Assembly (NCBI GenBank): GCA_964520655.1
Contig: CAZFNI010000005.1
Location: 48,852 to 112,851 of the forward strand
DNA: 64,000 nucleotides
Direction: 5' to 3'
From: an uncultured Planctomycetales bacterium
GTDB lineage: Bacteria > Omnitrophota > Gorgyraeia > Zapsychrales > Fredricksoniimonadaceae
Shown piece by piece: positions 7,593-50,802 of the stretch. A program made the translations under genes and the position numbers. Numbering within the stretch: the first letter of the stretch is position 1; the number at the start of each line of letters is the position of its first letter. The notes under the pieces were generated by a model, which was not told where the DNA came from, did no database searches, and worked only from the letters and a program-made list of their open reading frames with translations.

Positions 7593-7603
7593 GCAGGTGC
7601 CCC

Positions 7604-17258: not shown

Positions 17259-17262
17259 ACAT

Positions 17263-18057: not shown

Positions 18058-18060
18058 ACT

Positions 18061-19179: not shown

Positions 19180-19181
19180 TT

Positions 19182-33214: not shown

Positions 33215-33218
33215 CATG

Positions 33219-33467: not shown

Positions 33468-34548
33468 GTACAGGGATCCTAAATTAGCCTTACAGCTTTC
33501 CCGTGAGATCCACCGTATCACCACAAAACCATGGGTCTTAATGGAAGTTTGCGGCGGTCAGACTCATGCGATCGTTAAGTTCGGCATTGATGAATTGCTT
33601 CCTAAAAACATTGAATTGATCCATGGACCAGGATGTCCTGTATGTGTCACTCCGTTAGAGTTGATCGACAGGGCCATTCATTTAGCTAGTCGTCCTGATG
33701 TCATCTTTTGTTCTTTTGGTGATATGCTGCGTGTTCCAGGTTCTAACCGAGATCTATTTTCGGTCAGGGCCCAAGGAGGGGATGTACGTATTGTATACTC
33801 TCCACTCGATGCCCTGATGATCGCCCGTCAAAACCCATCTAAAGAAATCGTATTCTTTGCAGTCGGTTTTGAGACGACCGCACCGGCCAATGCCATGGCT
33901 GTTTATCAGGCTAAACAGGAAGGGATAAAGAACTTTTCTGTTCTCGTATCTCATGTACTTGTGCCTCCTGCTATTTCTGCGGTCATGTCCTCAAAAGTTA
34001 ATCGTGTACAAGCATTTCTTGCTGCGGGTCATGTATGTACGGTTATGGGCTATACGGAATATAAACCGTTGGTGGAAAGATTCAAGGTCCCTATTGTTGT
34101 GACAGGTTTTGAACCATTGGATATATTGCAGGGGGTATTGATGTGTGTTGCTCAGCTGCAAGAGGGACGTTATGCATTAGAAAATCAATATTCCCGCTGG
34201 GTCAAAGAGAACGGCAATGTTCATGCCATCAGTATTGTTGAGCGGGTATTTGACATTGTCCATCGCAAATGGCGGGGCATTGGAGAGATCCCTCAGAGCG
34301 GTCTGGGTTTAAAAAATGAATACAAAGTTTTTGATGCTGAAGAACGTTTTGATCTTAAAGGGATCATTACTTCAGAAAGCCCGGATTGCATCAGCGGTTT
34401 AATATTGCAAGGCGTAAAAAAACCATATGAATGCCCCGCCTATGGGAAGAAATGCACCCCAGACCATCCTTTAGGAGCCACCATGGTCTCATCCGAAGGG
34501 GCCTGTGCCGCGTATTACCGTTATCGGAAAGTGAGTGCAGGTGTTTAA
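33451..34548 (+). CDS. hypD: hydrogenase maturation factor HypD
   Basis: [19 protein letters not shown] and C-terminal [10 protein letters not shown] motifs. Confidence 0.95.
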
Positions 34549-35603
34549 TGGACCAAAATAAAGAGATCATGCTCAGTTGTCCGTTCCCTATTTCTGATTA
34601 TCCATATGTCCTGTTGGCACACGGTGGCGGCGGTCGATTCATGCATCAGCTGATCGAGAAAATGTTCTTGGCATCCTTTGAGAATCCTATTTTGATGCAG
34701 CGCCATGATGCGGCAGTCCTGGATGGCTTACAGGGAAAGATGGCCTTTACAACAGATTCATATGTGATAAGCCCTTTATTCTTTCCAGGAGGTAATATCG
34801 GTACTTTAGCGATTAATGGAACCGTCAACGACCTGGCGATGGCCGGTGCGCGTCCTTTATATTTAAGCTGCGGTTTTATCCTGGAAGAAGGGCTGCTGAT
34901 GGAGGACTTGTGGAAGGTGATCAATGCCATGCGTGTTGCCGCAAAAGAAGCTGGGGTGCAGATCGTGACGGGTGACACCAAGGTGGTGGGTAAGGGCAAA
35001 GCAGATGGGATTTTTATCAATACAGCGGGCATAGGGGTCATCGAACATAAACTGAACATTAATCCTGTATCAGTGAAAGAAGGGGATGCGATCATCGTTA
35101 ATGGCGACCTGGGTGATCATGGAATGGCGATCATGGCCAGCCGAGAGAATTTGTCGTTTGAAACAACCCTTCAAAGCGATACTGCTCCTTTGGCGGGGAT
35201 GGTCTTAGATTTGATCCGTCAACAGATCGATGTGCATTGTTTACGGGATCTGACCCGTGGCGGCCTTGCCAGCACCTTAAATGAGATCGCAAGCCTGTCT
35301 CACAAGAAACTTTTGATCAAGGAAGCAGCTATTCCAGTCAAAGAAGAGGTTGCGTCAGCTTGTGAACTGCTTGGATTTGACCCTTTATATGTGGCCAATG
35401 AGGGGCGTTTAGCGGTATTTGTGCCAGCCAATCAGGCGGAAAAGACGGTTTCGATCATGCGCGATCACCCTCAAGGTCAGGGCGCATGTATTATAGGCCA
35501 CGTAGAGAAATCAGAGTCGCCGCGCGTTGTTTTACACTGCAAAATTGGCACCCAGCGTGTCGTGGACATGATCTCAGGAGAACAGCTGCCCCGTATTTGT
35601 TAA
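34548..35603 (+). CDS. hypE: hydrogenase maturation factor HypE
   Basis: AIR-synthase-like fold. C-terminal ...PRIC. Starts at [13 protein letters not shown] (TAATG overlap with hypD). The ORF-track start 34431 lies inside hypD. Confidence 0.9.
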
Positions 35604-35626
35604 GCTCAAACTAAAGAAATAATATT

Positions 35627-35655
35627 TTGACTTGGGTTTATTAAGGTAGTAAGAT
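35627..35655 (+). promoter_or_regulatory. candidate sigma70 promoter for nifJ (TTGACT-N17-TAAGAT)
   Basis: -35 TTGACT at 35627-35632, 17-nt spacer, -10 TAAGAT at 35650-35655, about 35 nt upstream of the nifJ ATG. RBS AGGGAG. Confidence 0.4.
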
Positions 35656-35690
35656 TTTAAATTCATAGAAATTTATACATAGGGAGCAAT

Positions 35691-38600
35691 ATGAAAACAC
35701 GTAAACAGGTCACGATTGATGGAAATGAAGCAGCCTCTTATATAGCATTTGCCTTAAGCGAAGTGGTGGCGATCTACCCGATCACGCCATCTTCCTCAAT
35801 GGGGGAATGGACCGATGAATGGGCCTCCATGGGAAAAAAGAACATCTGGGACACAGTGCCCTTAGTCCAGGAAATGCAAAGTGAAGCCGGAGCTGTGGGG
35901 GCTGTCCATGGGGCGATTCAAACCGGAGCTTTGACCACAACGTTTACCAGCTCCCAGGGGTTATTACTGATGTTACCGAACATGTACAAGATCGCGGGGG
36001 AGTTATCCTCAACGGTCTTTCATGTGGCCGCACGCTCCATCGCGACCCAGGGTTTATCCATTTTTGGCGACCATCAGGACGTAATGTCTGCCCGTATGAC
36101 CGGTTTTGCCATGTTATGCTCCTGTTCTGTTCAAGAGGCCATGGATTTTGCCTTGATCGCGCATGCCGCGACCTTAGAATCCCGCATCCCGTTCATCCAT
36201 TTCTTTGACGGTTTCCGTACTTCCCATGAGATCGCGAAGATCGAACAGTTGACCTATGATGATATCCGCAGCATGATCGATGAAAATCTGGTGTTGGAAC
36301 ACCGTAATCGCCGTTTAACCCCGGATAATCCTGTCATTCGCGGCACGGCCCAAAATCCTGATGTGTATTTCCAGTCCCGCGAGACGGTTAATCCGTTCTA
36401 TAACGCTTGTCCTGGTATTGTTCAGAAAACAATGGATAAATTCGCTGCGCTTACTGGCCGCCAGTACAAATTATATGAATATTATGGCCACCCTCAAGCT
36501 GAACGCGTGATCGTGCTCATGGGTTCAAGCGCGGAAACGTGCCAGGATACGGTTGACCGTTTAAATGAAACCAACCAAAAGGTCGGTTTCATCAAGGTGC
36601 GTCTTTACAGGCCTTTTGATGTGGACGGCATCATCAATGTATTACCGAAGACAGTTAAAACAGTGTGCGTACTTGACCGCACCAAGGAACCTGGCAGCGC
36701 CGGCGATCCTTTATATCTGGATGTGGTCAATGCCTTGGTAGAATCCAATGCGGCAGGTAAGTTCCCATCGATCCCGCGCATTATCGGCGGGCGTTACGGT
36801 CTATCCTCCAAGGAATTCACCCCGGCAATGATCAAAGGCGTTTACGATGAAATGGCCAAATCAAAACCGAAAAATCATTTCACGGTCGGCATCAATGATG
36901 ACCTTTCCCATACCAGCATTGAATATGATGAGAATTTCATCATTGAGAACGAAGGTGGGGTTCGCGCGATCTTTTATGGACTGGGCGCCGATGGTACGGT
37001 CAGCGCGAATAAGAACTCGATCAAGATCATTGGCGAACATACCTCGATGTACGCTCAAGGGTATTTCGTCTATGACTCCAAGAAATCCGGTTCCGTCACT
37101 GTTTCACATTTACGCTTCGGTCCCAAACCCATCCATTCCACATTTTTAGTCAGCAAAGCCAGCTTCGTTGGCTGCCATCAATTCCAATTCCTGGAAAGCT
37201 ATGATGTTTTAGAGAAGATCGATGAAGGCGGAGTTTTCCTATTAAATACGATCTACGGGGTTGATGACATTTGGGCTCACATCCCTCGTAAAGTCGCTCA
37301 AACGATCAAAGATAAGAAACTAAAATTCTATATCATTGATGCCTATGAAGTCTCCAAGGCAGTCGGTCTTGGCATGCGCATCAACAGCATCATGCAGACC
37401 TGTTTCTTTGCCATTTCCGGCATTTTGCCTCAGCAGGAAGCTATTGAGGCCATCAAGGAACACATTAAGAAGAGTTACAGCAAGAAGGGTGAAGATGTCC
37501 TGCGCATGAATTACGAAGCTGTCGACCATACCCTGGTGCACCTCAAAGAAGTCAAGGTGCCGGCAGTAATTTCAAGTACTTTGGAACTGGCTGCAGCAGT
37601 GTCCGGCAAAGCACCGGCATTTGTCCAGAATGTGACGGCTAAAATGATCGCAGGCAGAGGTGATCAGATCTCGGTCAAAGCGCTGCCTTGCGATGGGACA
37701 TACCCGGTCGGGACAACCCAATGGGAAAAGCGCAATATCGCGCAGGATATCCCTGTCTGGGATGCCGATATTTGTATTCAGTGCGGCAAATGCGCCATGG
37801 TCTGTCCGCACTCGGTCATTCGTATCAAGGCCTATGATCCCAAGCATTTATCCAATGCCCCAGCGACATTCAAGGCTGTTGAGGCTAAGGATAAAGAATG
37901 GGCAGGATTAAAATACACCATTCAAGTAGCCCCTGAAGACTGTACAGGCTGCGCGATCTGCGTGGATATTTGTCCTGTTAAGAATAAGACAGAAACTAAA
38001 CTGAAAGCATTGAACATGAAAGCTCAACCGCCGCTGCGCGAGAGCGAGAAAAAGAACTGGGAACATTTCCTGGAGATCCCAGAGTTGGATCGGAACTTAG
38101 TCAAGATGAATTCCATCCGCTCGTCACAGGCTCTTCAGCCCTTGTTCGAGTTCTCCGGAGCTTGTGCAGGCTGCGGTGAAACACCCTATATCAAACTGGC
38201 GACGCAATTATTCGGCGACCGCATGGTGATCGCCAATGCCACCGGCTGTTCATCCATCTATGGCGGCAATTTACCGACAACACCCTATACCAAGAATAAG
38301 GATAACCGCGGGCCGGCCTGGAGTAATTCATTGTTTGAAGACAATGCGGAATTTGGTTTAGGTTTCCGCTTATCGATCGACAAGCAAAAGGAATACGCCC
38401 AGGAATTGACCAAAAAATTGGAATCGACGATCGGCACAGCCCTTGTTGAATCCATCATCAATGCGCCGCAGAAAGATGAAGCGGATATCTTTACCCAACG
38501 CGAGCGCATCGCTGAATTGAAGAAAAAACTGCAAGGCCAAACATCCATTGAAGCCAAACAATTGCTCAATTTAGCCGATATGATGGTCAAGAAGAGTGTC

Positions 38601-39254
38601 TGGATCTTCGGCGGTGACGGCTGGGCCTATGATATCGGGTTTGGCGGATTAGATCATGTGATCTCTTCTGGACGCAATGTGAATATCCTTGTTCTGGACA
38701 CAGAAGTTTATTCCAATACTGGCGGCCAGATGTCCAAATCAACACCGCGGTCGGCTGTTGCCAAATTTGCGGCTGGCGGGAAAAGCACCGCGAAAAAAGA
38801 TCTAGCCCGCATCGCCATGACCTACGGCCATGTGTATGTGGCCTCTGTCGCCATGGGTGCCAAGGATGAACATACCTTAAGGACTTTCCTGGAAGCGGAA
38901 GCTTACGAAGGGCCGTCATTGATCATCGCCTACAGCCACTGCATTGCCCACGGGATCAACATGACCACAGGTATGCAGAACCAGAAATCTGCTGTCCTTT
39001 CTGGATACTGGCCGTTATTCCGCTTTAATCCGATGCTGGCCATGGAAGGAAAGAATCCATTGCAGTTGGATTCAGCTGATCCTAAATTAATGTTAAAAGA
39101 ATTCATGGGATTAGAGAACAGGTTCAAGATGCTTAACAAAACAAAACCGGAAGCAGCCGCGGAATTAGCGAAATATGCTCAGCAAGACGTTAATGATCGC
39201 TGGCAAATCCTTAAAACAATGGCCGCAACACCTGAACAGGCCAAGGGGGTATAG
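35691..39254 (+). CDS. nifJ: pyruvate:ferredoxin (flavodoxin) oxidoreductase, single-chain NifJ type
   Basis: 1187 aa. Fused POR domains. Ferredoxin domain CIQCGKCAMVCP / CTGCAICVDICP. TPP-binding GDGW motif. Confidence 0.95.
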   Translation: MKTRKQVTIDGNEAASYIAFALSEVVAIYPITPSSSMGEWTDEWASMGKKNIWDTVPLVQEMQSEAGAVGAVHGAIQTGALTTTFTSSQGLLLMLPNMYKIAGELSSTVFHVAARSIATQGLSIFGDHQDVMSARMTGFAMLCSCSVQEAMDFALIAHAATLESRIPFIHFFDGFRTSHEIAKIEQLTYDDIRSMIDENLVLEHRNRRLTPDNPVIRGTAQNPDVYFQSRETVNPFYNACPGIVQKTMDKFAALTGRQYKLYEYYGHPQAERVIVLMGSSAETCQDTVDRLNETNQKVGFIKVRLYRPFDVDGIINVLPKTVKTVCVLDRTKEPGSAGDPLYLDVVNALVESNAAGKFPSIPRIIGGRYGLSSKEFTPAMIKGVYDEMAKSKPKNHFTVGINDDLSHTSIEYDENFIIENEGGVRAIFYGLGADGTVSANKNSIKIIGEHTSMYAQGYFVYDSKKSGSVTVSHLRFGPKPIHSTFLVSKASFVGCHQFQFLESYDVLEKIDEGGVFLLNTIYGVDDIWAHIPRKVAQTIKDKKLKFYIIDAYEVSKAVGLGMRINSIMQTCFFAISGILPQQEAIEAIKEHIKKSYSKKGEDVLRMNYEAVDHTLVHLKEVKVPAVISSTLELAAAVSGKAPAFVQNVTAKMIAGRGDQISVKALPCDGTYPVGTTQWEKRNIAQDIPVWDADICIQCGKCAMVCPHSVIRIKAYDPKHLSNAPATFKAVEAKDKEWAGLKYTIQVAPEDCTGCAICVDICPVKNKTETKLKALNMKAQPPLRESEKKNWEHFLEIPELDRNLVKMNSIRSSQALQPLFEFSGACAGCGETPYIKLATQLFGDRMVIANATGCSSIYGGNLPTTPYTKNKDNRGPAWSNSLFEDNAEFGLGFRLSIDKQKEYAQELTKKLESTIGTALVESIINAPQKDEADIFTQRERIAELKKKLQGQTSIEAKQLLNLADMMVKKSVWIFGGDGWAYDIGFGGLDHVISSGRNVNILVLDTEVYSNTGGQMSKSTPRSAVAKFAAGGKSTAKKDLARIAMTYGHVYVASVAMGAKDEHTLRTFLEAEAYEGPSLIIAYSHCIAHGINMTTGMQNQKSAVLSGYWPLFRFNPMLAMEGKNPLQLDSADPKLMLKEFMGLENRFKMLNKTKPEAAAELAKYAQQDVNDRWQILKTMAATPEQAKGV

Positions 39255-39256
39255 AC

Positions 39257-40246
39257 ATGGATCTATCAACATCATACTTAGGAATGACATTAAAAAATCC
39301 CCTGGTGGCTTCGGCATCCCCGTTGACCTGGGAGCTGGATAATTACAAACGCTTGGAAGATGCCGGCGTTGCTGCGATCGTTACGCATTCCATTTTTGAA
39401 GAGCAGATAACGCATGAAGTGGGGGAATTACAGCATTATTTAAAACAGGGATCGGAGAGCTACGCGGAATCGTTGTCTTATTTTCCTCAACCTTCTGAAT
39501 TCCCATTGGGCCCTGAGGAATATCTGGATCATATTTACAAAGCTAAGAAATCCGTCAAGATACCTGTGATCGCCAGTCTCAATGCGCACACAGAAGGCGG
39601 ATGGCTTACGTTTGCCAAACAATTAAAAAGCGCTGGGGCGGATGCGTTAGAGTTAAATGTTTATTTTATGGCCACAGACGTTAATGTTGACGGCAGGGCT
39701 GTTGAAGAAACATACTTGGATATCCTCAAAGGGATCAAAACCGTCGTCAATATCCCAGTTGCAGTTAAGATCGGACCATATTTCAGTGCGTTGGCCAATA
39801 TGGCACAGCGTTTGGATCAAGCAGGTGCAAATGGTTTAGTCTTGTTTAATCGTTTTTACCAGCCGGACATTGATCTAGATGAATTGGCTGTTTCTCCCAA
39901 CGTTGTGTTAAGCAATTCCTATGACCTTCGCCTTCCGATGCGCTGGATAGGGGTCCTTTATGGACGCATTAAGGCCAATCTTGCCGCTTCAGGAGGTATT
40001 CATTCGGAAGAGGATGCGATCAAAATGATCATGTCCGGCGCGGATGTGACCATGATGTGTTCTGTCCTGTTACGTCATGGGCCAGCTCATGTGAAAAAAG
40101 TATTAGCGGGGATGGAAAAATGGATGAATGAACATGAGTATAGTTCTGTCTCACAGATGAAGGGCAGTATGAGTCAGAGATCATGTGCTAATCCAGAAGC
40201 GTTTGAACGCGCTAATTATATGAAAACACTTCAAAGTTATAAGTAA
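39257..40246 (+). CDS. dihydroorotate dehydrogenase-like FMN-binding TIM-barrel protein (PFOR-associated)
   Basis: DHOD family N-terminus (LKNPLVASASPLT) and lysine/asparagine barrel motifs. No obvious pyrD-type catalytic Cys/Ser context was verified. 2 nt after the nifJ stop. Confidence 0.65.
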   Translation: MDLSTSYLGMTLKNPLVASASPLTWELDNYKRLEDAGVAAIVTHSIFEEQITHEVGELQHYLKQGSESYAESLSYFPQPSEFPLGPEEYLDHIYKAKKSVKIPVIASLNAHTEGGWLTFAKQLKSAGADALELNVYFMATDVNVDGRAVEETYLDILKGIKTVVNIPVAVKIGPYFSALANMAQRLDQAGANGLVLFNRFYQPDIDLDELAVSPNVVLSNSYDLRLPMRWIGVLYGRIKANLAASGGIHSEEDAIKMIMSGADVTMMCSVLLRHGPAHVKKVLAGMEKWMNEHEYSSVSQMKGSMSQRSCANPEAFERANYMKTLQSYK

Positions 40247-40334: not shown

Positions 40335-41045
40335 ATGAAAAGCTCATTTCTAAAAATCTTTATGGGGATCATGATTGCAACTGCTAGCGCCGCAACAGCC
40401 ATGGCAGGTTCCGTCTCTGGTACGATCAAATTTGAAGGTAATGCCCCCAATTTCAAAGCGGTCAATATGGATGCGGATCCGATCTGTGCTGCTCAGCATA
40501 AAGATGCCGTCATGCCTCAAACCCTGGTTTTAGGCGAAGGCAATACAATGGGTAATGTGTTCGTGTACATCAAGAACGCCCCGGCCGGTGATTATAAAGC
40601 TCCGGCAGATCCTGTTGTCGTGGATCAAAAAGGATGTAACTATAGCCCTCATGTGTTAGGGGTCATGGTTGGTCAACCCGTTAAGATCTTAAATCCTGAC
40701 GGGACTTTACATAATATCCACGCGATCAGCAAAATTAATCCTGAATTCAATATGGCCATGCCAAAATTCCGTACGGAATTGACAAAGACATTTGATAAAG
40801 CGGAATTCATGTTCGCCATGAAGTGCGATGTTCATCCCTGGATGGGAGCTTGGATATCTGTCATGCCCAATCCATTTTTTGCCGTGACGGGTACAGATGG
40901 TAAATTCGAGATCAAGAATCTTCCTGATGGCACATATACCATTGAAGCCTGGCATGAAAAATTAGGGACAAGATCCGCCAGTGTCACTGTTTCAGGCGGA
41001 ACTGCGACTGCTGATTTTTCATTTGCTGTTCCAACGAAAAGTTAG
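40335..41045 (+). CDS. secreted cupredoxin (blue-copper, amicyanin/pseudoazurin-like) domain protein
   Basis: Signal peptide MKSSFLKIFMGIMIATASAATAMA. Type-1 Cu ligand pattern GQPVKILNPDGTLHNIHA (His) ... CDVHPWM (Cys-x2-His-x2-Met). Confidence 0.6.
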   Translation: MKSSFLKIFMGIMIATASAATAMAGSVSGTIKFEGNAPNFKAVNMDADPICAAQHKDAVMPQTLVLGEGNTMGNVFVYIKNAPAGDYKAPADPVVVDQKGCNYSPHVLGVMVGQPVKILNPDGTLHNIHAISKINPEFNMAMPKFRTELTKTFDKAEFMFAMKCDVHPWMGAWISVMPNPFFAVTGTDGKFEIKNLPDGTYTIEAWHEKLGTRSASVTVSGGTATADFSFAVPTKS

Positions 41046-41062: not shown

Positions 41063-42796
41063 TTGATGGCTCATTCCCAACCGCATGATCATGCTGTGCC
41101 TTTTTGGCGTAAATACATTTTCTCCACTGATCACAAGATCATCGGGATCCAATACGGCATCACATCCTTGATATTCTTACTTTTGGGTTTTGGCATGATT
41201 CTGCTCATGCGCTGGCAGCTGGCTAATCCTGGCGTGGCGCTGCCTTTGGTCGGAAAACTCTTTGGTGAGAACAATATGCCTGGCGGCGTGATGCTTCCAG
41301 AATTTTATAATCAGCTTGGCGCGATGCATGGAACCATCATGGTCTTTTTAGGTGTTGTTCCTTTAGCGGTTGGCGCCTTTGGTAATTATCTGGTGCCGCT
41401 TCAGATCGGCGCACCTGACATGTGTTTCCCCAAACTCAATATGATGAGCTATTGGGTTTATCTAACTGGCGGTCTTATCATGATGGCCAGTTTTTTCCTA
41501 CCTGGAGGGGCTGCTAATTCGGGATGGACTTCTTACCCGCCGCTATCAGAGTTCGCCACAATTGGGCAGACAGCATGGCTCATCGGAATGGTGTTTTTGA
41601 TCACATCCTCGTTGCTGGGGGCTGTCAATTTCATCTGTACGATTTTCCAATTAAGAGCGTCGGGCATGACCTGGATGCGTCTGCCATTCTTCACTTGGAC
41701 GCAATTGGTAACATCCTTTTTACTATTATTAGCTTTCCCACCGCTTGAAGCTGCCGGTGTGATGCAGTTAATGGACCGGCTTTTCCATACAAGTTTCTTT
41801 TTACCTTCTGGTCTTGTTGTTTCCGGCCAACCTCTGCACGTCAGCGGGGGAGGGAGCGTCCTGTTATGGCAGCACTTATTCTGGTTCCTCGCGCATCCAG
41901 AAGTTTATGTCTTGATCTTACCGGCACTCGGGATCGTTACCGAGATCATCGCCAATAATATCCGCAAACCCATCTGGGGATTGCGTACCATGATCTATTC
42001 CATCATCGGCTTAGGTTTTTTATCGTTCGTTGTTTGGGCTCACCACATGTATTTAACCAACATGGGAACAATGATCAGCGCGTTCTTCCAAACCACGACC
42101 ATGATGATCTCAATCCCTTCGGTTATTATCCTGACATGCTTGTTCATTTCCTTGTGGGGCGGTTCCATCCGTTTCAATACGCCGATGCTTTTCGCCATCT
42201 CTTTCTTACCGATGTTCGGATTAGGCGGGTTAACAGGGCTTCCATTGGGATTGGCTTCTCCTGATATCCACCTGCATGATACCTATTATGTGATCGGACA
42301 TTTCCATTATGTAGTTGCTCCCGGAACGATCTTTGCCATGTTTGCCGGTATCTATTTTTGGTTCCCGAAATTAACCGGGAAGAAATTGAATGAATTTCTT
42401 GGTCAATTACATTTCTGGCCATCATTCGTTTGCATGAACTTTATCTTTTTTCCCATGCTGATCCAGGGATTAGCGGGTGTTTCCAGACGTTTGTACGACG
42501 GAGGAGCAAGCTACGCTCACGCTCAGCCGGTACTGTATTTAAACGGTGTTATGTCAACAGCCGCCTTTATTATGGGTGCAGTCCAATTCATTTTTATCAT
42601 TAATATTATCTGGACGTTGATCGCAGGCAAGAAAACCAATAGCGATAATCCATGGGATGCGACGACCCTTGAATGGGCAACACCAACACCGCCAGGGCAC
42701 GGTAATTTCACGCATCCGCCGATCGTTTATAAAGAACCTTATGAGTACAGTGTACCGGGTGCGCCTAAAGATTTTAGTCCGCAATTTGAGAAGTGA
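41063..42796 (+). CDS. ctaD: heme-copper oxidase subunit I (A-type aa3)
   Basis: FSTDHKIIGIQY N-terminus. 12+ TM. Conserved His ligands (WAHHMY, HYVV). Confidence 0.95.
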   Translation: MMAHSQPHDHAVPFWRKYIFSTDHKIIGIQYGITSLIFLLLGFGMILLMRWQLANPGVALPLVGKLFGENNMPGGVMLPEFYNQLGAMHGTIMVFLGVVPLAVGAFGNYLVPLQIGAPDMCFPKLNMMSYWVYLTGGLIMMASFFLPGGAANSGWTSYPPLSEFATIGQTAWLIGMVFLITSSLLGAVNFICTIFQLRASGMTWMRLPFFTWTQLVTSFLLLLAFPPLEAAGVMQLMDRLFHTSFFLPSGLVVSGQPLHVSGGGSVLLWQHLFWFLAHPEVYVLILPALGIVTEIIANNIRKPIWGLRTMIYSIIGLGFLSFVVWAHHMYLTNMGTMISAFFQTTTMMISIPSVIILTCLFISLWGGSIRFNTPMLFAISFLPMFGLGGLTGLPLGLASPDIHLHDTYYVIGHFHYVVAPGTIFAMFAGIYFWFPKLTGKKLNEFLGQLHFWPSFVCMNFIFFPMLIQGLAGVSRRLYDGGASYAHAQPVLYLNGVMSTAAFIMGAVQFIFIINIIWTLIAGKKTNSDNPWDATTLEWATPTPPGHGNFTHPPIVYKEPYEYSVPGAPKDFSPQFEK

Positions 42797-42811
42797 TCTA
42801 GAAGGAGAGAT

Positions 42812-43414
42812 ATGTCCGCGGAAACTATTCCTTATACAGTAGAAGAGAGACCAGATACCGGCTTTAATAATGCCACCTTAGGGATCTGGTTATTCATAGC
42901 TTCTGAGATCATGCTTTTTGGCGGCTTGCTTTCCGCTTATGTCTTGCTGCGGACAAGTGCGGCCAATTGGCCGATGGGTGCCAGTATACTTAATATACCG
43001 CTCGCCACATTAAATACGCTCATCCTTGTCATTTCTTCGATCGCGGTTGTTTTTGCCTGGGCCGCTATTCGTTCAGGCGATGTGCCCAGATTCCGTAAAT
43101 TCTGGATCATTTCAATTTTATGCGGCTTGGGATTTCTGGCACTTAAAACCTTCGAGTATTCGGTCAAATTCCATCACGGCCTTTATCCGTCCTCGAATAC
43201 CTTTCTGGCGACATATTTTACCCTGACGGGGCTGCACGCGCTGCATATTATCGGCGGTCTGATCGTCAATACCTATCTGTTGATCCCAGGCTTCGCAATG
43301 CAGAAAGAAGATCCTCACCGCTTTGCGCATCGTATCGAAATAGCAGGGATCTACTGGCATTTTGTGGACCTATTGTGGATCATTCTATTATTCCCGGTTT
43401 TGTACCTTTTATAG
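42812..43414 (+). CDS. ctaE: cytochrome c oxidase subunit III (5-TM short form)
   Basis: [21 protein letters not shown] and [11 protein letters not shown] motifs. Confidence 0.85.
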
Positions 43415-43417
43415 AGG

Positions 43418-43783
43418 GTGACTATGTCGCAAATGCATGATGTCCCTAAAATGGTAGAAGTGTATAAGAAGCTCTTTATTTTGATCGTTTCTGTGACCGC
43501 ATTAGGGATCGTTCTATCGGCGCTGCATATGCCTCTTTTTTGGACGGTCATTATTGCATTATCGATCATTGTATTTAAAGGCAAGATCGTTTACGATTCA
43601 TTTAAAGATCTCTTGATAGGGAAGAATGCCCTGATCGTTGTTTTTATCCTGACCATTTTCTTTTTTTTGATGATCTTGTTATTGCCCTTATTCAACCACG
43701 AAAACCTCATCGTTGGGACTGAAGATATCTCAAAAGATATCCAAGCCCAGGAGCACGCACAAGGGGGTGGCCATGGGCATTAA
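43418..43783 (+). CDS. putative cytochrome c oxidase subunit IV-like small membrane protein (3 TM)
   Basis: 121 aa, three hydrophobic helices. Position after subunit III as in Bacillus-type ctaF. His-rich C-terminus (GGGHGH). Confidence 0.5.
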   Translation: MTMSQMHDVPKMVEVYKKLFILIVSVTALGIVLSALHMPLFWTVIIALSIIVFKGKIVYDSFKDLLIGKNALIVVFILTIFFFLMILLLPLFNHENLIVGTEDISKDIQAQEHAQGGGHGH

Positions 43784-43949
43784 AAATATCCACATACTTT
43801 TGATCACTGCAGCTGTCAGTATTTCGATGATCTTTGGGATCTGGGGATTAAATCATGATTACCAGATATTAGGGATCATTGCCCTTGTGATCGCTGTCGG
43901 ATTGGCGGTTTATGGTGTGCAATTCCTTAAAAAGGCCCAAACATTATGA
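43773..43949 (+). CDS. small membrane protein (58 aa, 2 TM) inside the oxidase operon
   Basis: MGIKNIHILLITAAVSISMIFGIWGLNHDYQILGIIALVIAVGLAVYGVQFLKKAQTL. The ATG overlaps the end of the preceding gene. Confidence 0.45.
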   Translation: MGIKNIHILLITAAVSISMIFGIWGLNHDYQILGIIALVIAVGLAVYGVQFLKKAQTL

Positions 43950-44107
43950 TCTGTGCTGTCTGTTTTGGTGACCCTTCATCGTTGGTCACACAGGGCTATA
44001 ATTACGGCATATTATCGCTGCTCGGTGTAGTGATAGCGGTTTTGATCGGTTTTGTATTCCTTTTTATCAATATTTCTAACCGCAGCAGGAGATCACCCTT
44101 ATGTTAG
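43946..44107 (+). CDS. small membrane protein (53 aa, N-terminal CxxC, 1 TM) inside the oxidase operon
   Basis: Hand translation: MICAVCFGDPSSLVTQGYNYGILSLLGVVIAVLIGFVFLFINISNRSRRSPLC. ATGA overlap with the upstream micro-ORF. Its 3' end contains the AGGAGA RBS and the ATG of coxB. Confidence 0.4.
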   Translation: MICAVCFGDPSSLVTQGYNYGILSLLGVVIAVLIGFVFLFINISNRSRRSPLC

Positions 44108-44865
44108 GTTTACCGCCTATTGCTTCCGCTCATGGTTACCAGATAGATCAGATGATATATCTGATCCATGGCTTAATGCTTCTATTATTTGTCGGGTGGG
44201 GCGTTTTTTTTATCATCACACTCATCCGTTTCAACAAATGGGCAAATCCAAAAGCTAATTATCACGGTGTTCAAAGTCATATCTCCAGCACGTTGGAGGT
44301 CGCTGTTGTCGTGGCCGAAGTTATCCTGCTGGTATGTTTTTCCATACCGTTCTGGTCAAAGCAGATCAATTCTTTTCCAAACAGGCCGGATGCGATCGAA
44401 CTGCGTGTTATTGCCGAACAGTTCGCGTGGAATATCCATTATCCAGGTAAAGACGGTAAATTCGGCAAGACGAAGATCGCGCTCATCGATCAGCAAAACA
44501 ATCCCATTGGTTTAGACGTCACCGACCCCAACGCAAAAGATGATTTCACCACTGTCAATCAAATGCATATACCAGTGGGCCGTCCAGTGATCGTATATTT
44601 ATCATCGAAAGATGTGATCCATTCTTTTGCCTTGCCGATCATGCGCGTCAAACAGGATGTGATACCTGGCATGGCGATCAAAACATGGTTCGTACCGACA
44701 AAGACAGGGAAATCCGAGATCGCCTGCGCGCAATTATGCGGCATTGGTCACTATCGGATGAAGGGTTATTTAACGGTCGATTCTCAAAAAGATTACGATG
44801 AATGGATTTCTAAACAAACGCCTGCAGGCGGCGCCGGATCTTCCGGTGATAACTTCTGGAACTAA
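44101..44865 (+). CDS. ctaC: cytochrome c oxidase subunit II (CuA, no fused cytochrome c domain)
   Basis: CuA site HSFALPIMRV...CAQLCGIGHYRM (H, C-x3-C-x3-H-x2-M). No CXXCH. Confidence 0.9.
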   Translation: MLGLPPIASAHGYQIDQMIYLIHGLMLLLFVGWGVFFIITLIRFNKWANPKANYHGVQSHISSTLEVAVVVAEVILLVCFSIPFWSKQINSFPNRPDAIELRVIAEQFAWNIHYPGKDGKFGKTKIALIDQQNNPIGLDVTDPNAKDDFTTVNQMHIPVGRPVIVYLSSKDVIHSFALPIMRVKQDVIPGMAIKTWFVPTKTGKSEIACAQLCGIGHYRMKGYLTVDSQKDYDEWISKQTPAGGAGSSGDNFWN

Positions 44866-44868
44866 ATC

Positions 44869-45873
44869 ATGAATGAATCTCACATCTTTCTGCGCCGTTT
44901 CTCCAAAATTCTTTCTTTTGTCACACTGCTCTTGATCTATTTAGGAGCTTTGGTAAAAAGCACTGATTCAGGCTTATCTGTACCCGATTGGCCGACGACA
45001 TATGGCAAATTCATGTTCAGTTTTCCCTTGGATCAAATGGCAGGGGGGATCAAATATGAACATACCCATCGGATGCTGGCCTCAATTGTGGGTCTCATGT
45101 CATTGACGTTATGCGTACTTTTGCTTAGATCCAATGTCCCTGTCTGGATCAAACGTTTAGGGATCGCATCATTTGTTTTAGTCGCGGCGCAAGGCCTTTT
45201 GGGTGGGCTCACGGTCATTCATTTCCTGCCAGTCTCTTTATCTTCCTTACACGGTGTATTTGGACAGTCATTTTTCGTGGTCTGTTTAATGATCTCTTAT
45301 GGTCTTTCCGTTGAACGCGGCTTACGTCTCAACGCCTCTGAAGAATATGATGGGAAATTCATCCGTTTTGTATTGATTTTAACGGGAATGGTCTTTATTC
45401 AACTGATCATCGGCAATATCCTGCGTCACACGAATTCCGGTCTCGCTATCCCTGATTTCCCAACAACAGGTGGAACATTCATCCCGACAATGAATCAAGC
45501 AATGTTAGAGAGGATCAATGTTTGGCGTTTTGAGCATAATTTGGATCCTGTGAAAATGGGTCAGGTCCATATCCATTTGACCCACCGTATCTGGGGGGTG
45601 TTGATCCTGTTAAAATTGATCTTTATCAATCAGGTCGCATACAAACGCTATTTGAACAACATGCTTGTCATGAAAACATTATTCTGGCTTAATATGGCTG
45701 TCGTTCTCCAGATCGGACTGGGGATCGGAACCGTATTAATGGAAAAAGAACCTGTCACAACAACACTACACGTCACGGTTGGAGCCATTGTTCTGGCGCT
45801 TAGTTTCCTGTTGTTCCTGCGGGCGTCACCGTGCACGATCGCTGCTTATCAGAAAGCCATTGCAAAAAAATGA
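44869..45873 (+). CDS. ctaA: heme A synthase (CtaA/COX15 family)
   Basis: 8 TM with paired His-containing helices (EHTHRML; HLTHRIWG). Confidence 0.85.
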   Translation: MNESHIFLRRFSKILSFVTLLLIYLGALVKSTDSGLSVPDWPTTYGKFMFSFPLDQMAGGIKYEHTHRMLASIVGLMSLTLCVLLLRSNVPVWIKRLGIASFVLVAAQGLLGGLTVIHFLPVSLSSLHGVFGQSFFVVCLMISYGLSVERGLRLNASEEYDGKFIRFVLILTGMVFIQLIIGNILRHTNSGLAIPDFPTTGGTFIPTMNQAMLERINVWRFEHNLDPVKMGQVHIHLTHRIWGVLILLKLIFINQVAYKRYLNNMLVMKTLFWLNMAVVLQIGLGIGTVLMEKEPVTTTLHVTVGAIVLALSFLLFLRASPCTIAAYQKAIAKK

Positions 45874-46733
45874 ATAGATCCATCCTCAACGCTTGCATAA
45901 AGATGGCAAAGCCGAACATCTGCCTGTCGGTCATGATCACGACTGTATGGGGTTTTTATTTTGCCAAAAGCGGGATTAAGGACTTTTCATTATTATTTTG
46001 GACGCTTCTAGGAACAGCTCTTTCCTGCGGCGGTTCATCCATCCTTAATCAATACTTGGAAAGAGATGTGGATGCTTTGATGCAGAGGACAAAAACACGT
46101 CCTATTCCCATGGGGATCGTCAGCCCCAATAATGCCATGTACTCAGGTATTCTTCTTGTGTTGCTTGGCGTATTTATCTTAATGGTGAAGGTTAATCTAT
46201 TGACAGCCTTTTTATGCTTATTAACCGCATTCCTGTATGTTCTTGTGTATACGCCCATGAAACGCCTGAGTTGGCTTAATACCACCATTGGGGCTATCCC
46301 AGGGGCTTTACCGACAATTGGCGGATGGTCAGCGGCAAGCGGTACGATCGATCCTGGTGCATGGATCCTTTTCTTTATTTTGTTTTCCTGGCAGCATCCT
46401 CATTTCTTTGCCATTTCCTGGATGTACAAAGAGGACTATAAAAAAGCTGGGTTCAAAATGCTGCCGTGTGTATATCCGGAGGGACGTTTTACATTTGCCC
46501 AAATGATGGCTTTTTGTTTTGCCTGCATTGCCTTTTCCTTAATGCCGTCAATGATCGGGATGAGCGGTAAAGTATATTTCTGGGGGGCTCTATTTCTAGG
46601 AACATTGCTTGTCATCCCGACACTCATGTTTAGAACAAATTATTCCATAGCCAATGCTCGAAAGGTCTTGGCGGCGTCGATCCTTTATTTACCATTACTA
46701 TTATTCTTTATCGTGTTGGATGTCATTCTCTGA
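45870..46733 (+). CDS. ctaB: protoheme IX farnesyltransferase (heme O synthase)
   Basis: UbiA-family motifs (NQYLERDVDALMQRTKTRPIP; YT..KR). ATGA overlap with ctaA. The ORF-track start 45831 lies inside ctaA. Confidence 0.9.
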   Translation: MNRSILNACIKMAKPNICLSVMITTVWGFYFAKSGIKDFSLLFWTLLGTALSCGGSSILNQYLERDVDALMQRTKTRPIPMGIVSPNNAMYSGILLVLLGVFILMVKVNLLTAFLCLLTAFLYVLVYTPMKRLSWLNTTIGAIPGALPTIGGWSAASGTIDPGAWILFFILFSWQHPHFFAISWMYKEDYKKAGFKMLPCVYPEGRFTFAQMMAFCFACIAFSLMPSMIGMSGKVYFWGALFLGTLLVIPTLMFRTNYSIANARKVLAASILYLPLLLFFIVLDVIL

Positions 46734-47724
46734 TCGTTTTCTTAAACTACAGGTCCTATTCACCGCTTTAGTCCTTGTTCTGTTCGTTGCCTACAAAAAC
46801 GTTCATTCCAACAGCGGACTGCCTGTACTGGGCCATGTCAATGATTTTTCGCTCACCTCACAGCATAACGCATCATTTTCTTTAAAAGACCTCAACGGGA
46901 GCGTCTGGGTCGCTGATTTTGTTTTTACGACCTGCTCCGGCATTTGTCCGGGTATGAGCACGCACATGTCAGGTATATCAAAAGCGTATAATGCCTATAA
47001 AGATGTCCGCATGGTCTCCATCACGGTGAATCCGGAGAATGATACACCGGATGTGTTGACAAAATACTTGAAGAAATACGGAGCAAATGACCGCTGGACA
47101 TTCTTGACAGGAACAAGGGATCAGATCCAGAAACTAGCTGTCGAAAGTTTTAAAATAGGGGACATGAAGGAGATTGTTTTTCACTCGTCGATGTTCGTGC
47201 TGGTAGACCAAAAGGCCAGGATCCGTGGATATTACGACAGTTCGGACGAGGATCGTATGAAAATGCTTTACGCTGATATCGGAGCGCTTCGCAAAGAACT
47301 CAATCTCCCGATCCTGCCGTCGATTAACGCCACTCTCAACGGTCTGGCGGGTATACTATTATTGTTCGGCTTTATGGCGATCAAAAATAAGCAAAAAGAA
47401 CTTCATAAAAGATTCATGCTGTCCGCGATCATTGCCTCATGCGTATTTTTGATGTCATACCTGTATTATCACGCCACAACCCATATTATCACCAGATATC
47501 AGGGGGAAGGGATGCTTCGCATGGCGTATTTCTTTATTCTGACGACTCATACGATCCTGGCGGCTGTGATCGTGCCATTGATACTGTTCGCTGTAAAGCA
47601 CGCCTTAAGGGGGAATTGGGAAGGACATACACGCATTACAAAGTGGCTTTATCCGTCCTGGGTGTATGTTTCCTTGACCGGAGTGATCGTATATTTAATG
47701 CTTTATGTGTTTAAACCTGCCTAA
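46720..47724 (+). CDS. SCO1/SenC copper chaperone fused to a C-terminal DUF420-like membrane domain
   Basis: N-terminal anchor, thioredoxin-like domain with CSGICP (C-x3-C-P) and downstream conserved His (VFHSS). C-terminal ~140 aa has 4 TM resembling DUF420, which is often encoded next to aa3 oxidase genes. An alternative ATG lies at 46654. Confidence 0.7.
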   Translation: MSFSDRFLKLQVLFTALVLVLFVAYKNVHSNSGLPVLGHVNDFSLTSQHNASFSLKDLNGSVWVADFVFTTCSGICPGMSTHMSGISKAYNAYKDVRMVSITVNPENDTPDVLTKYLKKYGANDRWTFLTGTRDQIQKLAVESFKIGDMKEIVFHSSMFVLVDQKARIRGYYDSSDEDRMKMLYADIGALRKELNLPILPSINATLNGLAGILLLFGFMAIKNKQKELHKRFMLSAIIASCVFLMSYLYYHATTHIITRYQGEGMLRMAYFFILTTHTILAAVIVPLILFAVKHALRGNWEGHTRITKWLYPSWVYVSLTGVIVYLMLYVFKPA

Positions 47725-48057
47725 GATCAGATCCAGCCGCTTTTTGGCCTGGCCCACAACAAACTCCTTCTGGCCAAGCAAAGTCCCGTAAACGACAAAT
47801 CCGATCATATAGGTTGTTGAGATCAAGGGGATGTAAACAAGTACTTTGATCCACATCGGCGTTTTTTCTGTTATCCCGAACAGATGAAAGACTGGATTTC
47901 TGACAAAAACGATCGTGATCCCGGCTAAAGAATAGGCAAGCATCCTTAACCAATAAACCTTTTCATTATCAATGCCCATGCGTTTCATAAAATTCTTTTT
48001 AAAGATAAATAAGCATATTGTCCCAATGAGGATAAAAATGCGAAAGAAAGTTCTCAT
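47695..48057 (-). CDS. small polytopic membrane protein (120 aa), unknown function
   Basis: 3-4 hydrophobic helices. AAAGGA RBS 8 nt upstream of the ATG on the minus strand. 3' end overlaps the convergent SCO1-DUF420 gene by 30 nt. Confidence 0.45.
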   Translation of the reverse strand: MRTFFRIFILIGTICLFIFKKNFMKRMGIDNEKVYWLRMLAYSLAGITIVFVRNPVFHLFGITEKTPMWIKVLVYIPLISTTYMIGFVVYGTLLGQKEFVVGQAKKRLDLILGRFKHIKH

Positions 48058-48384
48058 GATATTCCTTTTAAGTCTTTAACGACAATTGATAAAAAGATCA
48101 TCCCGATAATTAGTGTCAACACCGCGGCAATTGCCAGGACGGCGATCATTTTCATAAAACCGTCAGCGCCAACATCAAATTTCAATATCGTTCGGATATT
48201 ATTCTCTTTCATTGTAACGGCCTAATGTTTTAACAGCAATGATTGAATGATCCAGCCTATTAAAAACAAAACGCCCGCCATCAGGAAAATATGATGCGGC
48301 ATTAATGCCGGGAAATACTTGATGAATCCAAAAGCCATCACAGATAATCCCGACGCCTGAAAGATCTTCGCGAGCCAGTACATA

Positions 48385-48861
48385 TCACTTCTTGATCCCT
48401 GACATTTCCAGAATTATAAATGTATTGTCACGAAAACTCTGGTGCTGGATACGTTTCGCGTAGCAAAAATGGATAATACCTGCCAGAAGGAGCCCCTGAT
48501 AAACGAATTGAGGTATCTTACCAGTATCGGCCGCACCGTAAAGGATGAACGCGGTCATCAAGATCAGCAGATTGAGCATTTGGGCAGGATACATAAAACG
48601 TTTGATGGCGATCATCCGCTGATGAAAGTTCCCGTGGATCTTATGTTCTAGCATATATTCTTTCACGCTGACACCCGTGCCGACAAAAAAGAAAATGATC
48701 AATGTTTCCGTGAACAAATACACGATCGCGGTCAGGATCAAAAAAGACATTGGCGATGCCTTAAAGACATAAAAGGGCGATAAACTCTGGCCAAAAACAA
48801 TCCCTAGCATCAGGAATGATGCTAGGGAGAAGAAATAACAGCTATACATGAAAAACCACAT
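48385..48861 (-). CDS. polytopic membrane protein (158 aa, 4 TM), unknown function
   Basis: Starts 1 nt after the fdxA stop on the minus strand. Hydrophobic helices with a His-containing loop (EHKIHGNFHQRM). Confidence 0.5.
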   Translation of the reverse strand: MWFFMYSCYFFSLASFLMLGIVFGQSLSPFYVFKASPMSFLILTAIVYLFTETLIIFFFVGTGVSVKEYMLEHKIHGNFHQRMIAIKRFMYPAQMLNLLILMTAFILYGAADTGKIPQFVYQGLLLAGIIHFCYAKRIQHQSFRDNTFIILEMSGIKK

Positions 48862-48862
48862 T

Positions 48863-49144
48863 TTACTTCTTGTCTGCTAAGGGGGTCTTTCTTTCAGTGA
48901 TGACTGGAAGAGCCTTGGCCTTATCCGCGTTCAAGCTGACAAAGCTCTTATATTTCTCCGGCAGATCAGAATCAGAGAAGATCGCCTGAACAGGACATTC
49001 CGGGATACAGGCACCGCAATCAATACAAACTTCAGGATCAATGACAAGCATCTCGGCATCTTCGTGGAAACAGTCAACAGGACATACCGTGACGCAGTCA
49101 GTGTATTTGCACTTAATACAGGGTTCAGCAACTATGTGAGCCAT
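48863..49144 (-). CDS. fdxA: 7Fe ferredoxin ([3Fe-4S][4Fe-4S], Azotobacter FdI type)
   Basis: [18 protein letters not shown] ... [12 protein letters not shown] with spacing identical to 7Fe ferredoxins. Strong similarity to A. vinelandii FdI recalled from memory. Confidence 0.9.
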
Positions 49145-49163
49145 AATGTTCTCCTTTTTTCAG

Positions 49164-50708
49164 TTAACGAAATGATGAAAGTTCTGGCGCGGGCGACATC
49201 GCTTTTGTCACAGGCCGCACTTCACGGTGCAGAAATTTAGTTTGACGGGCGGAATCAGTCTTAACACCTTTGATCAAACGGACAAATTTCTGAACAAAAT
49301 AATCAATGAACGCTTTAAAGCCATGGATTTTCCTTAAAAGATCACCCACAGAATTAATGGAAATAAGCATACGCCAGATTTGTCTGGGACGCAAATAAAA
49401 TTCTTTAAGACCAATATCGATATGTTCATCAATGTCTTTATGAGAGAATTGAGGATACGATAACAAGGTGCGCTGTTCACCTGTTGGGGTTAACCAGTCG
49501 CGCCAATCTTTGGCTAAGAGATAGTTATTATCCTTTGCCCAGTTGTAGAGGGAAGTGCCGGGATAAGAAGCGACTCCTGTGATCTGTATCGTATCTAATG
49601 GCATTGACTTGGCTAGATCGATCGTTTTACGGGCTGAGGCTTTTGTCTCTCCTGGAGCCCCGATCATAAAACACCCATGGACTGTAAACCCAAGCCTGTG
49701 GGCTTCTTTCGAATATTCTCGTGCCATATTGACACTGACGCCGCCTTTACGGATAACACGAAGATTCTCATCTGTCCCAAACTCAAAACCGGTCATCAGC
49801 ATACGGCAGCCGGCCTCGCGCATTAAAGGCAGGAGGGAGAGGTCCGTATTAACTCTCATATTACAAGACCAGGTGATCTGCTTATTGATCCCTTTTTGAA
49901 TGATCAGGTCGCAGACTTCTTTGACATGCTTTGCCTCAGCAGCAAATGTGTCTGTTTCAAACATGATCTCGCGTATCTGCGGATGGAGTTTAAGGTCATG
50001 TTCCATTTCCGCCACAACTAACGCGGCCGAACGGTTACGTAATTTATATCCATACATCAGCTGGGGATCGCGGCAGAAGGTGCAGGCATTATTGCAGCCA
50101 CGGCCGGTGATGAGGGTCAGAAAAGGGAACTTTTTACCGCCGTCAGGATACCACTCTGGCTTGATCAGTTGCCAGGCCGGAAAAGGCAATTGATTGACGT
50201 CAATATCAGGACGGGGGAGATTGCGTATCACCTGTCCGTTCTTTGTCCAACATAACCCAAGATTCTTATCATCTGGTATTCCGTTCGCCAGATCAAGCAG
50301 TGTATAGTCATACTCACGCGGTAAAATGTAATCCACAACGCCGCGTCCGATCTCAAAGGTATTATCAACCTCGGCGGTGGCATGCTGGCCAACGAAAACA
50401 ACCCGGCAGCGCGTGCGTTTTTTGATCGTTTTAGCCTGTTCTATATCTGAATAGATGGACGGGGTGGTCACATGCATGACCAGCAATTCCGGTTTAAGCG
50501 CGATAGCTGTTTCGATCGATTGTTCTTCAGTGAAATTACGCGCGGCAGCTTCCACAAAATGGGTATCGTGGCCGGCATCCAAAAGGACTTGGGCTGCTGT
50601 CAACAGGTACTCCGGATGACGCTGCACACGGCCGCGGGACTTGGCTGCCCAGCGGGCAACACGCACGAAATTTTCGCCGAAGGAAGGATTAAGAATGACA
50701 ACTTTCAT
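49164..50708 (-). CDS. B12-binding domain radical SAM protein (class B; BchE/HpnJ-like family, C-terminal DUF4070-like region)
   Basis: N-terminal cobalamin-binding-like domain (MKVVILNPSF...). Radical SAM CNNACTFC (CxxxCxxC). Start taken at MKVVIL (the ORF track extends to 50756). Confidence 0.8.
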   Translation of the reverse strand: MKVVILNPSFGENFVRVARWAAKSRGRVQRHPEYLLTAAQVLLDAGHDTHFVEAAARNFTEEQSIETAIALKPELLVMHVTTPSIYSDIEQAKTIKKRTRCRVVFVGQHATAEVDNTFEIGRGVVDYILPREYDYTLLDLANGIPDDKNLGLCWTKNGQVIRNLPRPDIDVNQLPFPAWQLIKPEWYPDGGKKFPFLTLITGRGCNNACTFCRDPQLMYGYKLRNRSAALVVAEMEHDLKLHPQIREIMFETDTFAAEAKHVKEVCDLIIQKGINKQITWSCNMRVNTDLSLLPLMREAGCRMLMTGFEFGTDENLRVIRKGGVSVNMAREYSKEAHRLGFTVHGCFMIGAPGETKASARKTIDLAKSMPLDTIQITGVASYPGTSLYNWAKDNNYLLAKDWRDWLTPTGEQRTLLSYPQFSHKDIDEHIDIGLKEFYLRPRQIWRMLISINSVGDLLRKIHGFKAFIDYFVQKFVRLIKGVKTDSARQTKFLHREVRPVTKAMSPAPELSSFR

Positions 50709-50802
50709 TGCTGATATAGTACATTTATCAGCATATTCCCGCAATGAATTTTTCAATTATTGATTCTTGTTTATTCTGGCAAACATCGTTAATATAGTGG
50801 CC

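Follow-up and report, generated by a model that had tools for sequence, protein, structure and literature searches.

A likely junction of separately inherited gene modules around a 7Fe ferredoxin gene in an Omnitrophota bacterium

Radical S-adenosylmethionine (SAM) enzymes require a low-potential one-electron donor, and one of them, the apramycin radical SAM diol dehydratase AprD4, has an aminosugar ring as its substrate. Contraction of lipid-linked hexose rings has been proposed for HpnJ and for calditol synthase, the ring in the case of HpnJ being that of a lipid-linked glucosamine (PMC13459092). In yeast, the membrane heme A synthase Cox15 needs a ferredoxin (PMC7140478). Here, we compare with these systems a run of genes on the minus strand (47695-50756) of a 64,000-nucleotide stretch of contig CAZFNI010000005.1 (metagenome-assembled genome GCA_964520655.1, positions 48,852 to 112,851), hereafter the window, whose proteins have their best matches in Candidatus Omnitrophota throughout. 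The run comprises a gene for a class-B-type radical SAM enzyme (rSAM), a gene for a 7Fe ferredoxin (fdxA) and four genes for small membrane proteins (m158, s53, s52 and a DUF6787 gene). A first-pass annotation of the window had suggested one system for the modification of a membrane lipid or a tetrapyrrole, in which the radical SAM enzyme is coupled to membrane proteins. Our analysis indicates that the stretch is likely not a single enzyme system but a site where modules of independent inheritance adjoin the gene of a general-purpose 7Fe ferredoxin.

Independent occurrence of the genes flanking fdxA

Related loci were collected as 40 genome loci anchored on rSAM (minus strand, 49164-50756) and 80 metagenome loci anchored on m158 (minus strand, 48385-48861), and their gene content was scored by tblastn. 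Three combinations were found around fdxA (minus strand, 48863-49144) in loci with enough flanking sequence, namely rSAM together with m158 (21 loci), rSAM only (20 loci) and m158 only (12 loci). The fdxA gene was located 3' of rSAM in 55 out of 61 loci and 5' of m158 in 58 out of 72. Eight of the loci without rSAM (L055, L061, L077, L078, L092, L093, L109 and L114) leave no space for it, since AcnA or RsmI ends approximately 110-380 nt before fdxA, which keeps its place beside these genes where rSAM is missing. The coupling of the radical SAM enzyme to the membrane proteins that had been suggested initially is thus not borne out: each half occurs without the other, and m158, s53 and s52 follow a ferredoxin gene and ctaAB/cox rather than rSAM.

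The gene content also varied with the type of oxidase cluster. Of the m158 loci of Omnitrophota type, 23 extended 4.5 kb or more downstream, and all of these carried a ctaAB/cox cluster that has no Rieske gene. Both s53 (minus strand, 48222-48383) and s52 (minus strand, 48054-48212) were kept in every related m158 locus with enough sequence. The same three genes were missing from seven loci in which the cox cluster contains Rieske and cytochrome b/c genes, and from 11 cox-less loci. In two loci (L025 and L026), the order rSAM-fdxA-DUF6787 was kept, and both m158/s53/s52 and the cox genes were either lost or never present. The DUF6787 gene (minus strand, 47695-48057) was found after fdxA with both types of cox cluster, and also in the cox-less loci L015, L017, L025 and L026. 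Furthermore, a remnant of approximately 75 nt of the 5' end of m158 was found in L014 and a hairpin homologous to the one described below in L016, which shows that m158 was deleted in the lineage with Rieske and cytochrome b genes in the cox cluster.

In most genome-derived loci that were scanned, the two halves of the run are also divided by an intrinsic terminator. An intrinsic-terminator-like hairpin (minus strand, 48792-48828) with a 12-bp stem, a 4-nt loop and a TTGTTTTTG tail follows fdxA, the hairpin and T-tract at 48828-48801 being placed 34 nt past the fdxA stop codon and within the first 60 nt of the m158 open reading frame (ORF). Its folding free energy (dG) was -19.8 kcal/mol, and the 79-nt stretch around it had a z-score of -4.09, with none of 200 shuffled sequences folding as well. 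The scan covered 36 genome-derived loci, of which 18, in addition to the window, had a terminator with a dG of -16 or lower after fdxA (range -16 to -42), and in most loci the hairpin with its T-tract sits 6-60 nt past fdxA whatever the downstream gene. In L011, as in the window, the homologous hairpin lies within codons 12-21 of m158, and it is intergenic in L014 and L016, both without m158. Despite the embedded hairpin, the N-terminal helix of m158 is still conserved as protein. Because m158 starts 1 nt past fdxA and contains the terminator, the membrane genes of the window seem to depend on read-through, and the position of the hairpin implies an attenuated expression of these genes.

With regard to other regulatory elements, a promoter scan gave a signal no higher than expected from shuffled sequence, and neither a cobalamin riboswitch nor any other Rfam element was found in the window, the only matches being below threshold and located on the terminator hairpin.

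A co-directional ferredoxin gene was present directly upstream of m158 in 68 out of 72 loci (fdxA alone in 36, fdxA plus fdx2 in 22 and fdx2 alone in 10). This second ferredoxin, fdx2, is a 2x[4Fe-4S] protein of 120-145 aa resembling RnfB and PorD; it is encoded between fdxA and m158 in many relatives (e.g., L001, 11978-12340; L002, 7699-8070; 22 metagenome loci), is not found in the window and is the sole ferredoxin ahead of m158 in distant loci. The m158 family was also found beyond Omnitrophota, in Poribacteria and Marinimicrobia, i.e., in three phyla in all. In the Poribacteria loci, fdx2-m158-s53 precedes genes for an anaerobic sulfatase maturase and a DUF6785/DUF6784 membrane protein, and in Marinimicrobia m158 stands alone beside fabA-fabB-ychF. 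Different orders were recorded for L117 (COX2-fdx2-m158) and L128 (fdx2-m158-s53, convergent with DUF420). The maturase of the Poribacteria loci (L122, 2907-7484; L126; L127) is bona fide (TIGR03942, 509 bits) and represents a second, unrelated radical SAM enzyme beside a ferredoxin-m158 module, a proximity that may be fortuitous or may indicate that radical SAM enzymes are served by the module.

The run itself consists of six tightly packed co-oriented ORFs, not four. The four ORFs of the first-pass annotation were all found at their coordinates on the minus strand, but what had been taken for a gap between the 158-aa and 120-aa proteins actually holds s53 and s52. Starting from its first TTG, the rSAM ORF encodes 530 aa; the true start is probably the ATG at 50708 (514 aa), since the homologues, of 480-521 aa, begin with MKVVILNP. 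The fdxA gene (93 aa) begins 19 nt past the rSAM stop codon with an AAGGAG site ahead of it and is followed after 1 nt by m158 (158 aa), after another 1 nt by s53 (a small membrane protein of 53 aa) and after 9 nt by s52 (a single-pass membrane protein of 52 aa), whose stop codon overlaps the start of the DUF6787 gene (a membrane protein of 120 aa) by 4 nt (ATGA). All six ORFs have conserved homologues and are therefore not chance ORFs. At its 3' end, the DUF6787 gene overlaps by 30 nt with the SCO1-DUF420 gene, the last of the convergent oxidase cluster identified with Pfam (plus strand, 41063-47724; COX1-COX3-COX4-COX2-CtaA-CtaB-SCO1/DUF420).

Upstream of rSAM, genes for an RsmI-like methyltransferase and an aconitase are oriented divergently. 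An IlvD-LeuC-LeuD-AcnA block, all of whose members are Fe-S dehydratases, lies divergent from rSAM-fdxA across much of the phylum (L011-L048), and in some Omnitrophota genomes the other flank is an F-type ATP synthase operon.

Identity and ancestry of the encoded proteins

The rSAM protein carries the CxxxCxxC core of the superfamily (GRGCNNACTFCRD) and matches Pfam Radical_SAM with 63.8 bits over residues 216-382. Its N-terminal region scored 27.0 bits with the B12-binding family PF02310, below the gathering score of 32.1; however, this domain is carried by most rSAM homologues, and the HpnJ, BchE and AprD4 models align over the same N-terminal region. The best curated match was HpnJ (TIGR03471), with which rSAM shares the domain architecture and an end-to-end alignment (model positions 2-467 of 472), but the score of 318 bits was well under the cutoff of 577.6. 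The NCBIfam models for BchE, ApyD, PhpK and AprD4 matched far more weakly than HpnJ, AprD4 reaching 71 bits against a cutoff of 500. Among solved structures, AprD4 was the closest by sequence (PDB 6fd2, E-value 5e-18, residues 10-397); it has an N-terminal Rossmann-like domain and a radical SAM core, but the two enzymes are distant and the context of AprD4 is that of a natural product. On the basis of profiles and phylogeny, rSAM is an HpnJ-like radical SAM enzyme, of the class-B type recognized in the first-pass annotation, and belongs to an Omnitrophota-specific clade distinct from HpnJ.

Orthologues with 65-89% identity were found in about 38 Omnitrophota genomes. In a search of the whole library, these formed a tight cluster, accompanied by a few metagenomic relatives at 44-57% identity and a broad radiation at approximately 30-38%. 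None of the ten nearest non-Omnitrophota representatives reached the HpnJ cutoff (262-435 bits), and rSAM was 33% identical to a true HpnJ, that of a Paraburkholderia graminis plasmid, which adjoins hpnI. In a neighbour-joining tree of 118 sequences, built without bootstrap, the Omnitrophota proteins were monophyletic and nested among P0241, P0245/P0397, P0244, P0247, P0243 and P0250, all of them within an HpnJ-like radiation, and the P. graminis HpnJ grouped apart from both the Omnitrophota clade and its sisters.

The gene neighbourhoods of these sisters bear on the ancestry of rSAM. In each of the successive sister clades with a readable locus, the radical SAM gene adjoins an orthologous family 2 glycosyltransferase (GT2) of the MftF/EpsD type. 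For the nearest phylogenetic relatives (P0391, P0397, P0244 and P0242; 44-57% identity), which are uncharacterised, the two genes are translationally coupled. The sister loci also hold class I methyltransferases, further B12-type radical SAM enzymes, DUF2304 proteins, polyprenyl-phosphate-hexose-synthase-type GT2s and AglB, PMT or Wzy genes (the GT-C enzymes). A similar glycan-cluster context surrounds the homologue on a Lawsonia intracellularis plasmid (LI_RS06575), which is more distant from rSAM (32% identity) and belongs to another clade. No ferredoxin gene was found in any of the sister loci or the HpnJ loci. The presence of GT2 neighbours in the sisters, and their absence from the Omnitrophota loci, indicate that the rSAM clade descends from enzymes of glycan clusters and that its neighbourhood has changed, the glycan genes having been lost and fdxA gained.

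HpnJ orthology was considered and dropped in view of the score, the separate clade and the lack of hpnI nearby. A tblastn search with HpnI was negative in the window and in 38 related loci, and none of the hopanoid families hpnI, hpnK, hpnH and squalene-hopene cyclase (SHC) surfaced among about 50 window ORFs scanned with Pfam. The partner of rSAM is a ferredoxin instead of a glycosyltransferase. In a survey of Omnitrophota genomes, the word 'radical' is absent from the text (PMC10066038).

The product of fdxA has the Cys motifs of the 7Fe type (CxxCxxxxCxxxCP and CxxCxxCxxxCP) and aligned over its full length with chains of the Azotobacter vinelandii 7Fe ferredoxin I (E-value 3e-33), in comparison with which it is 13 residues shorter at the C-terminus. 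The score with NCBIfam NF045490 (FdxA_Protbact) was 128.3 bits, slightly short of the cutoff of 135. Judged by these motifs and alignments, FdxA is a [3Fe-4S][4Fe-4S] ferredoxin of the Azotobacter ferredoxin I type, in agreement with the first-pass annotation.

With regard to the membrane proteins, m158 had no match to any Pfam or NCBIfam family, but 420 homologues were retrieved, with 33 invariant columns that include the N-terminal helix. Its AlphaFold2 model shows four long helices with a predicted local distance difference test score of 92, and m158 is accordingly modelled as a four-helix membrane protein of an orphan family. Conservation of s53 beside m158 extends to Omnitrophota and Poribacteria-type loci, and that of s52 to the Omnitrophota m158 loci. 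The conserved residues and positive charges of the m158-s53-s52 module map to predicted cytoplasmic loops, a distribution that would suit the docking of a ferredoxin. The 120-aa protein matched DUF6787 (PF20584) with 51.8 bits over residues 39-111 (cutoff 27.5); a word-based search gave five close matches, and we found no mention of this family in the literature. All five small ORFs are under purifying selection, with low non-synonymous (dN) and saturated synonymous (dS) divergence and dN/dS values of 0.06-0.33 where computable (s53, 0.19-0.28; s52, 0.11-0.33). A profile comparison of the membrane proteins, proposed in the first-pass annotation for the 158-aa and 120-aa products, gave nothing when m158, s53, s52 and the DUF6787 protein were compared by hhalign with the oxidase-associated families DUF420 (CtaM), COX3 and COX4 and with two small ORFs of the cox cluster; the best result was s52 against c27, with 26% probability.

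Proposed roles and alternative explanations

In our proposal, rSAM-fdxA constitutes a first module, a two-gene operon closed by the intrinsic terminator. The pairing of the two genes, already noted in the first-pass annotation, is real, and since fdxA follows rSAM in most loci, FdxA is a plausible reductant that would supply the electron for reduction of the [4Fe-4S] cluster of rSAM. The enzyme itself would use 5'-deoxyadenosyl-radical chemistry on the sugar moiety of a glycan or of a lipid-linked substrate, with either a rearrangement or ring contraction or a cobalamin-dependent C-methylation as the reaction. A sugar is probably the substrate of this orphan clade, given its descent from glycan clusters, the ring contractions proposed for HpnJ and calditol synthase (PMC13459092) and the likeness to AprD4. 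The highly conserved Omnitrophota clade may thus perform unusual chemistry on sugars or head groups in this uncultured phylum.

The second module would comprise m158-s53-s52, followed by the DUF6787 gene and placed in Omnitrophota against the ctaA-ctaB-SCO1-DUF420/cox cluster. Through its conserved, positively charged cytoplasmic face, it would dock a ferredoxin and serve the oxidase or the heme-A cluster. A more specific version, in which ferredoxin-m158-s53(-s52) is a previously undescribed membrane module, present in three phyla or more, by which a low-potential ferredoxin is docked at the cytoplasmic face of the membrane and which, in Omnitrophota, feeds electrons to heme A synthase or the A-type oxidase, is speculative and, in our estimate, rather improbable. 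To our knowledge, no electron donor of bacterial heme A synthase has been identified so far, and no bacterial equivalent of the link between the yeast ferredoxin Yah1 and Cox15 has been established. The likeness to the yeast system of Cox15 with Yah1/Arh1 is that genes for ferredoxins and small membrane proteins lie next to ctaA and ctaB here; Yah1, however, is of the [2Fe-2S] adrenodoxin type, and m158 is absent from ctaAB genomes with a Rieske-type cox cluster and is therefore not generally needed for heme A synthesis. If the proposal were true, the ferredoxin-m158 module would be a bacterial counterpart of Yah1-Cox15 and a candidate electron donor for bacterial heme A synthase, and the m158 family would be of wider interest as a mediator of electron delivery to membrane enzymes. 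A role of m158/s53/s52 as a substitute for the bc complex, suggested by their absence from cox clusters with Rieske and cytochrome b genes, was also considered and was rejected because the window has, at 16722-22142, its own genes for a Rieske protein, for cytochrome b and for a multi-cytochrome c of 986 aa.

Several observations weigh against the interpretation as a junction of modules with the roles given above. Read-through of the terminator after rSAM-fdxA means that both modules are co-transcribed, at least partly, in the window. Each of the two samples was anchored on one gene and many of the loci are related, so the counts show which combinations exist and not their frequencies. No recognisable cofactor-binding motif was found in m158, which in Poribacteria and Marinimicrobia does not adjoin cox genes. 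Of the 38 Omnitrophota rSAM loci, none has a GT2 of the kind seen in the sister loci at a distance of up to 10 kb, and the whole window lacks one as well, so that it is ancestry that carries the argument for a sugar substrate. Finally, FdxA may serve housekeeping functions, its gene lying beside rSAM by synteny only.

This last point can be extended to a competing explanation, according to which FdxA is a housekeeping or m158/oxidase-linked ferredoxin and rSAM receives its electrons from another donor, e.g., a flavodoxin. It agrees with the persistence of fdxA beside AcnA or RsmI in loci without rSAM, with the fact that fdxA precedes m158 as consistently as it follows rSAM, and with the lack of a ferredoxin gene in all sister rSAM loci and HpnJ loci; the AcnA-LeuCD block, moreover, is likewise syntenic across the phylum with no obvious functional link. 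The 19-nt spacing and the shared terminator, however, make rSAM-fdxA one transcript, and radical SAM enzymes do require a low-potential electron donor. We consider this explanation unlikely, although it is the most probable of the alternatives. A single operon-encoded system, in which an FdxA-reduced and membrane-held B12-type radical SAM enzyme modifies a membrane lipid or a tetrapyrrole (heme O/A) for the oxidase, would account for the tight co-oriented packing (gaps of 19, 1, 1 and 9 nt plus a 4-nt overlap), for an m158 that in the window can be transcribed only through the fdxA terminator, and for a unit convergent with ctaA/ctaB whose arrangement recurs in 21 loci. It is nevertheless largely refuted by the pattern of presence and absence and retains a very low probability: rSAM-fdxA occurs without the membrane genes and the membrane genes without rSAM, a terminator lies after fdxA, rSAM is kept without m158 in genomes that combine ctaAB with a cox cluster of Rieske type, and the nearest relatives of rSAM reside in GT2 glycan clusters and not in tetrapyrrole or fatty-acyl lipid pathways. 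The first-pass annotation had named two findings that would together speak against this system, and they diverged, as orthologues elsewhere do lack the membrane ORFs and rSAM does not cluster tightly with a family of known function. An attractive but mistaken association of a B12-type radical SAM enzyme with the biogenesis of heme or the oxidase is thereby removed.

Two further explanations concern the identity of individual genes. An rSAM orthologous to HpnJ would make the cyclitol ether of bacteriohopanetetrol, in accordance with its best NCBIfam match and full-length alignment, but the sub-cutoff score, the low identity, the different clade and the missing hpnI homologue leave hardly any likelihood for it. 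In addition, the genomes with HpnJ annotations in a published survey all have SHC and HpnH as well, and conservation of SHC across Omnitrophota is poor (PMC12324291). As for m158, s53 and s52 being spurious ORFs or non-coding spacer, the lack of family annotation, the terminator hairpin inside m158 and the NCBI annotation of the source contig, which starts m158 at an internal Met (121 aa, P0154), could be cited in favour. This explanation is refuted by the conservation of m158 in three phyla with invariant columns among its many homologues, the low dN and saturated dS of all three genes and the confident AlphaFold2 model of m158, and its probability is practically nil.

Redox and heme genes elsewhere in the window

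The Rieske, cytochrome b and 986-aa multi-cytochrome c genes mentioned above (plus strand, 16722-22142), together with an unannotated 372-aa protein, form a bc-type complex encoded approximately 20 kb away from the oxidase genes. Other Omnitrophota have a Rieske gene and a cytochrome b/c fusion within the cox cluster itself, where they are placed between CtaA and COX2. The last gene of the oxidase cluster (plus strand, 46654-47724) encodes a fusion of SCO1/SenC and a CtaM-like DUF420 domain of 356 aa, the counterparts of which in L001 and other relatives are separate genes for 198 and 137 aa. Just upstream of COX1 (plus strand, 40335-41045), a secreted 236-aa protein with a C-terminal CarboxypepD_reg-like domain is conserved in both types of cox cluster; it also has an amicyanin-like copper motif, recognized by eye (LHNIH ... 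KCDVHPWM), and could donate electrons to the CuA oxidase as a cupredoxin-type protein.

Directly upstream of the oxidase cluster (plus strand, 30920-40246), the window encodes the hydrogenase maturation proteins HypF, HypD and a HypE-like protein, together with a pyruvate:ferredoxin oxidoreductase of 1187 aa and a protein resembling dihydroorotate dehydrogenase. A ferredoxin-reducing enzyme is thus located beside an O2 reductase on the same strand. At 24359-25252 (plus strand), a membrane protein of the CbiM/NikM metal-uptake type is encoded beside a LysR regulator and a NuoF-like subunit, and could take up cobalt for cobalamin or, equally, nickel for hydrogenase. At the start of the window (plus strand, 101-8665), genes of heme synthesis, encoding HemE, an amine-oxidase-type protein resembling HemY/HemG, and HemA, are interleaved with ResB and CcsA of the system II cytochrome c biogenesis pathway and with MoeA and MobA of molybdenum cofactor synthesis.

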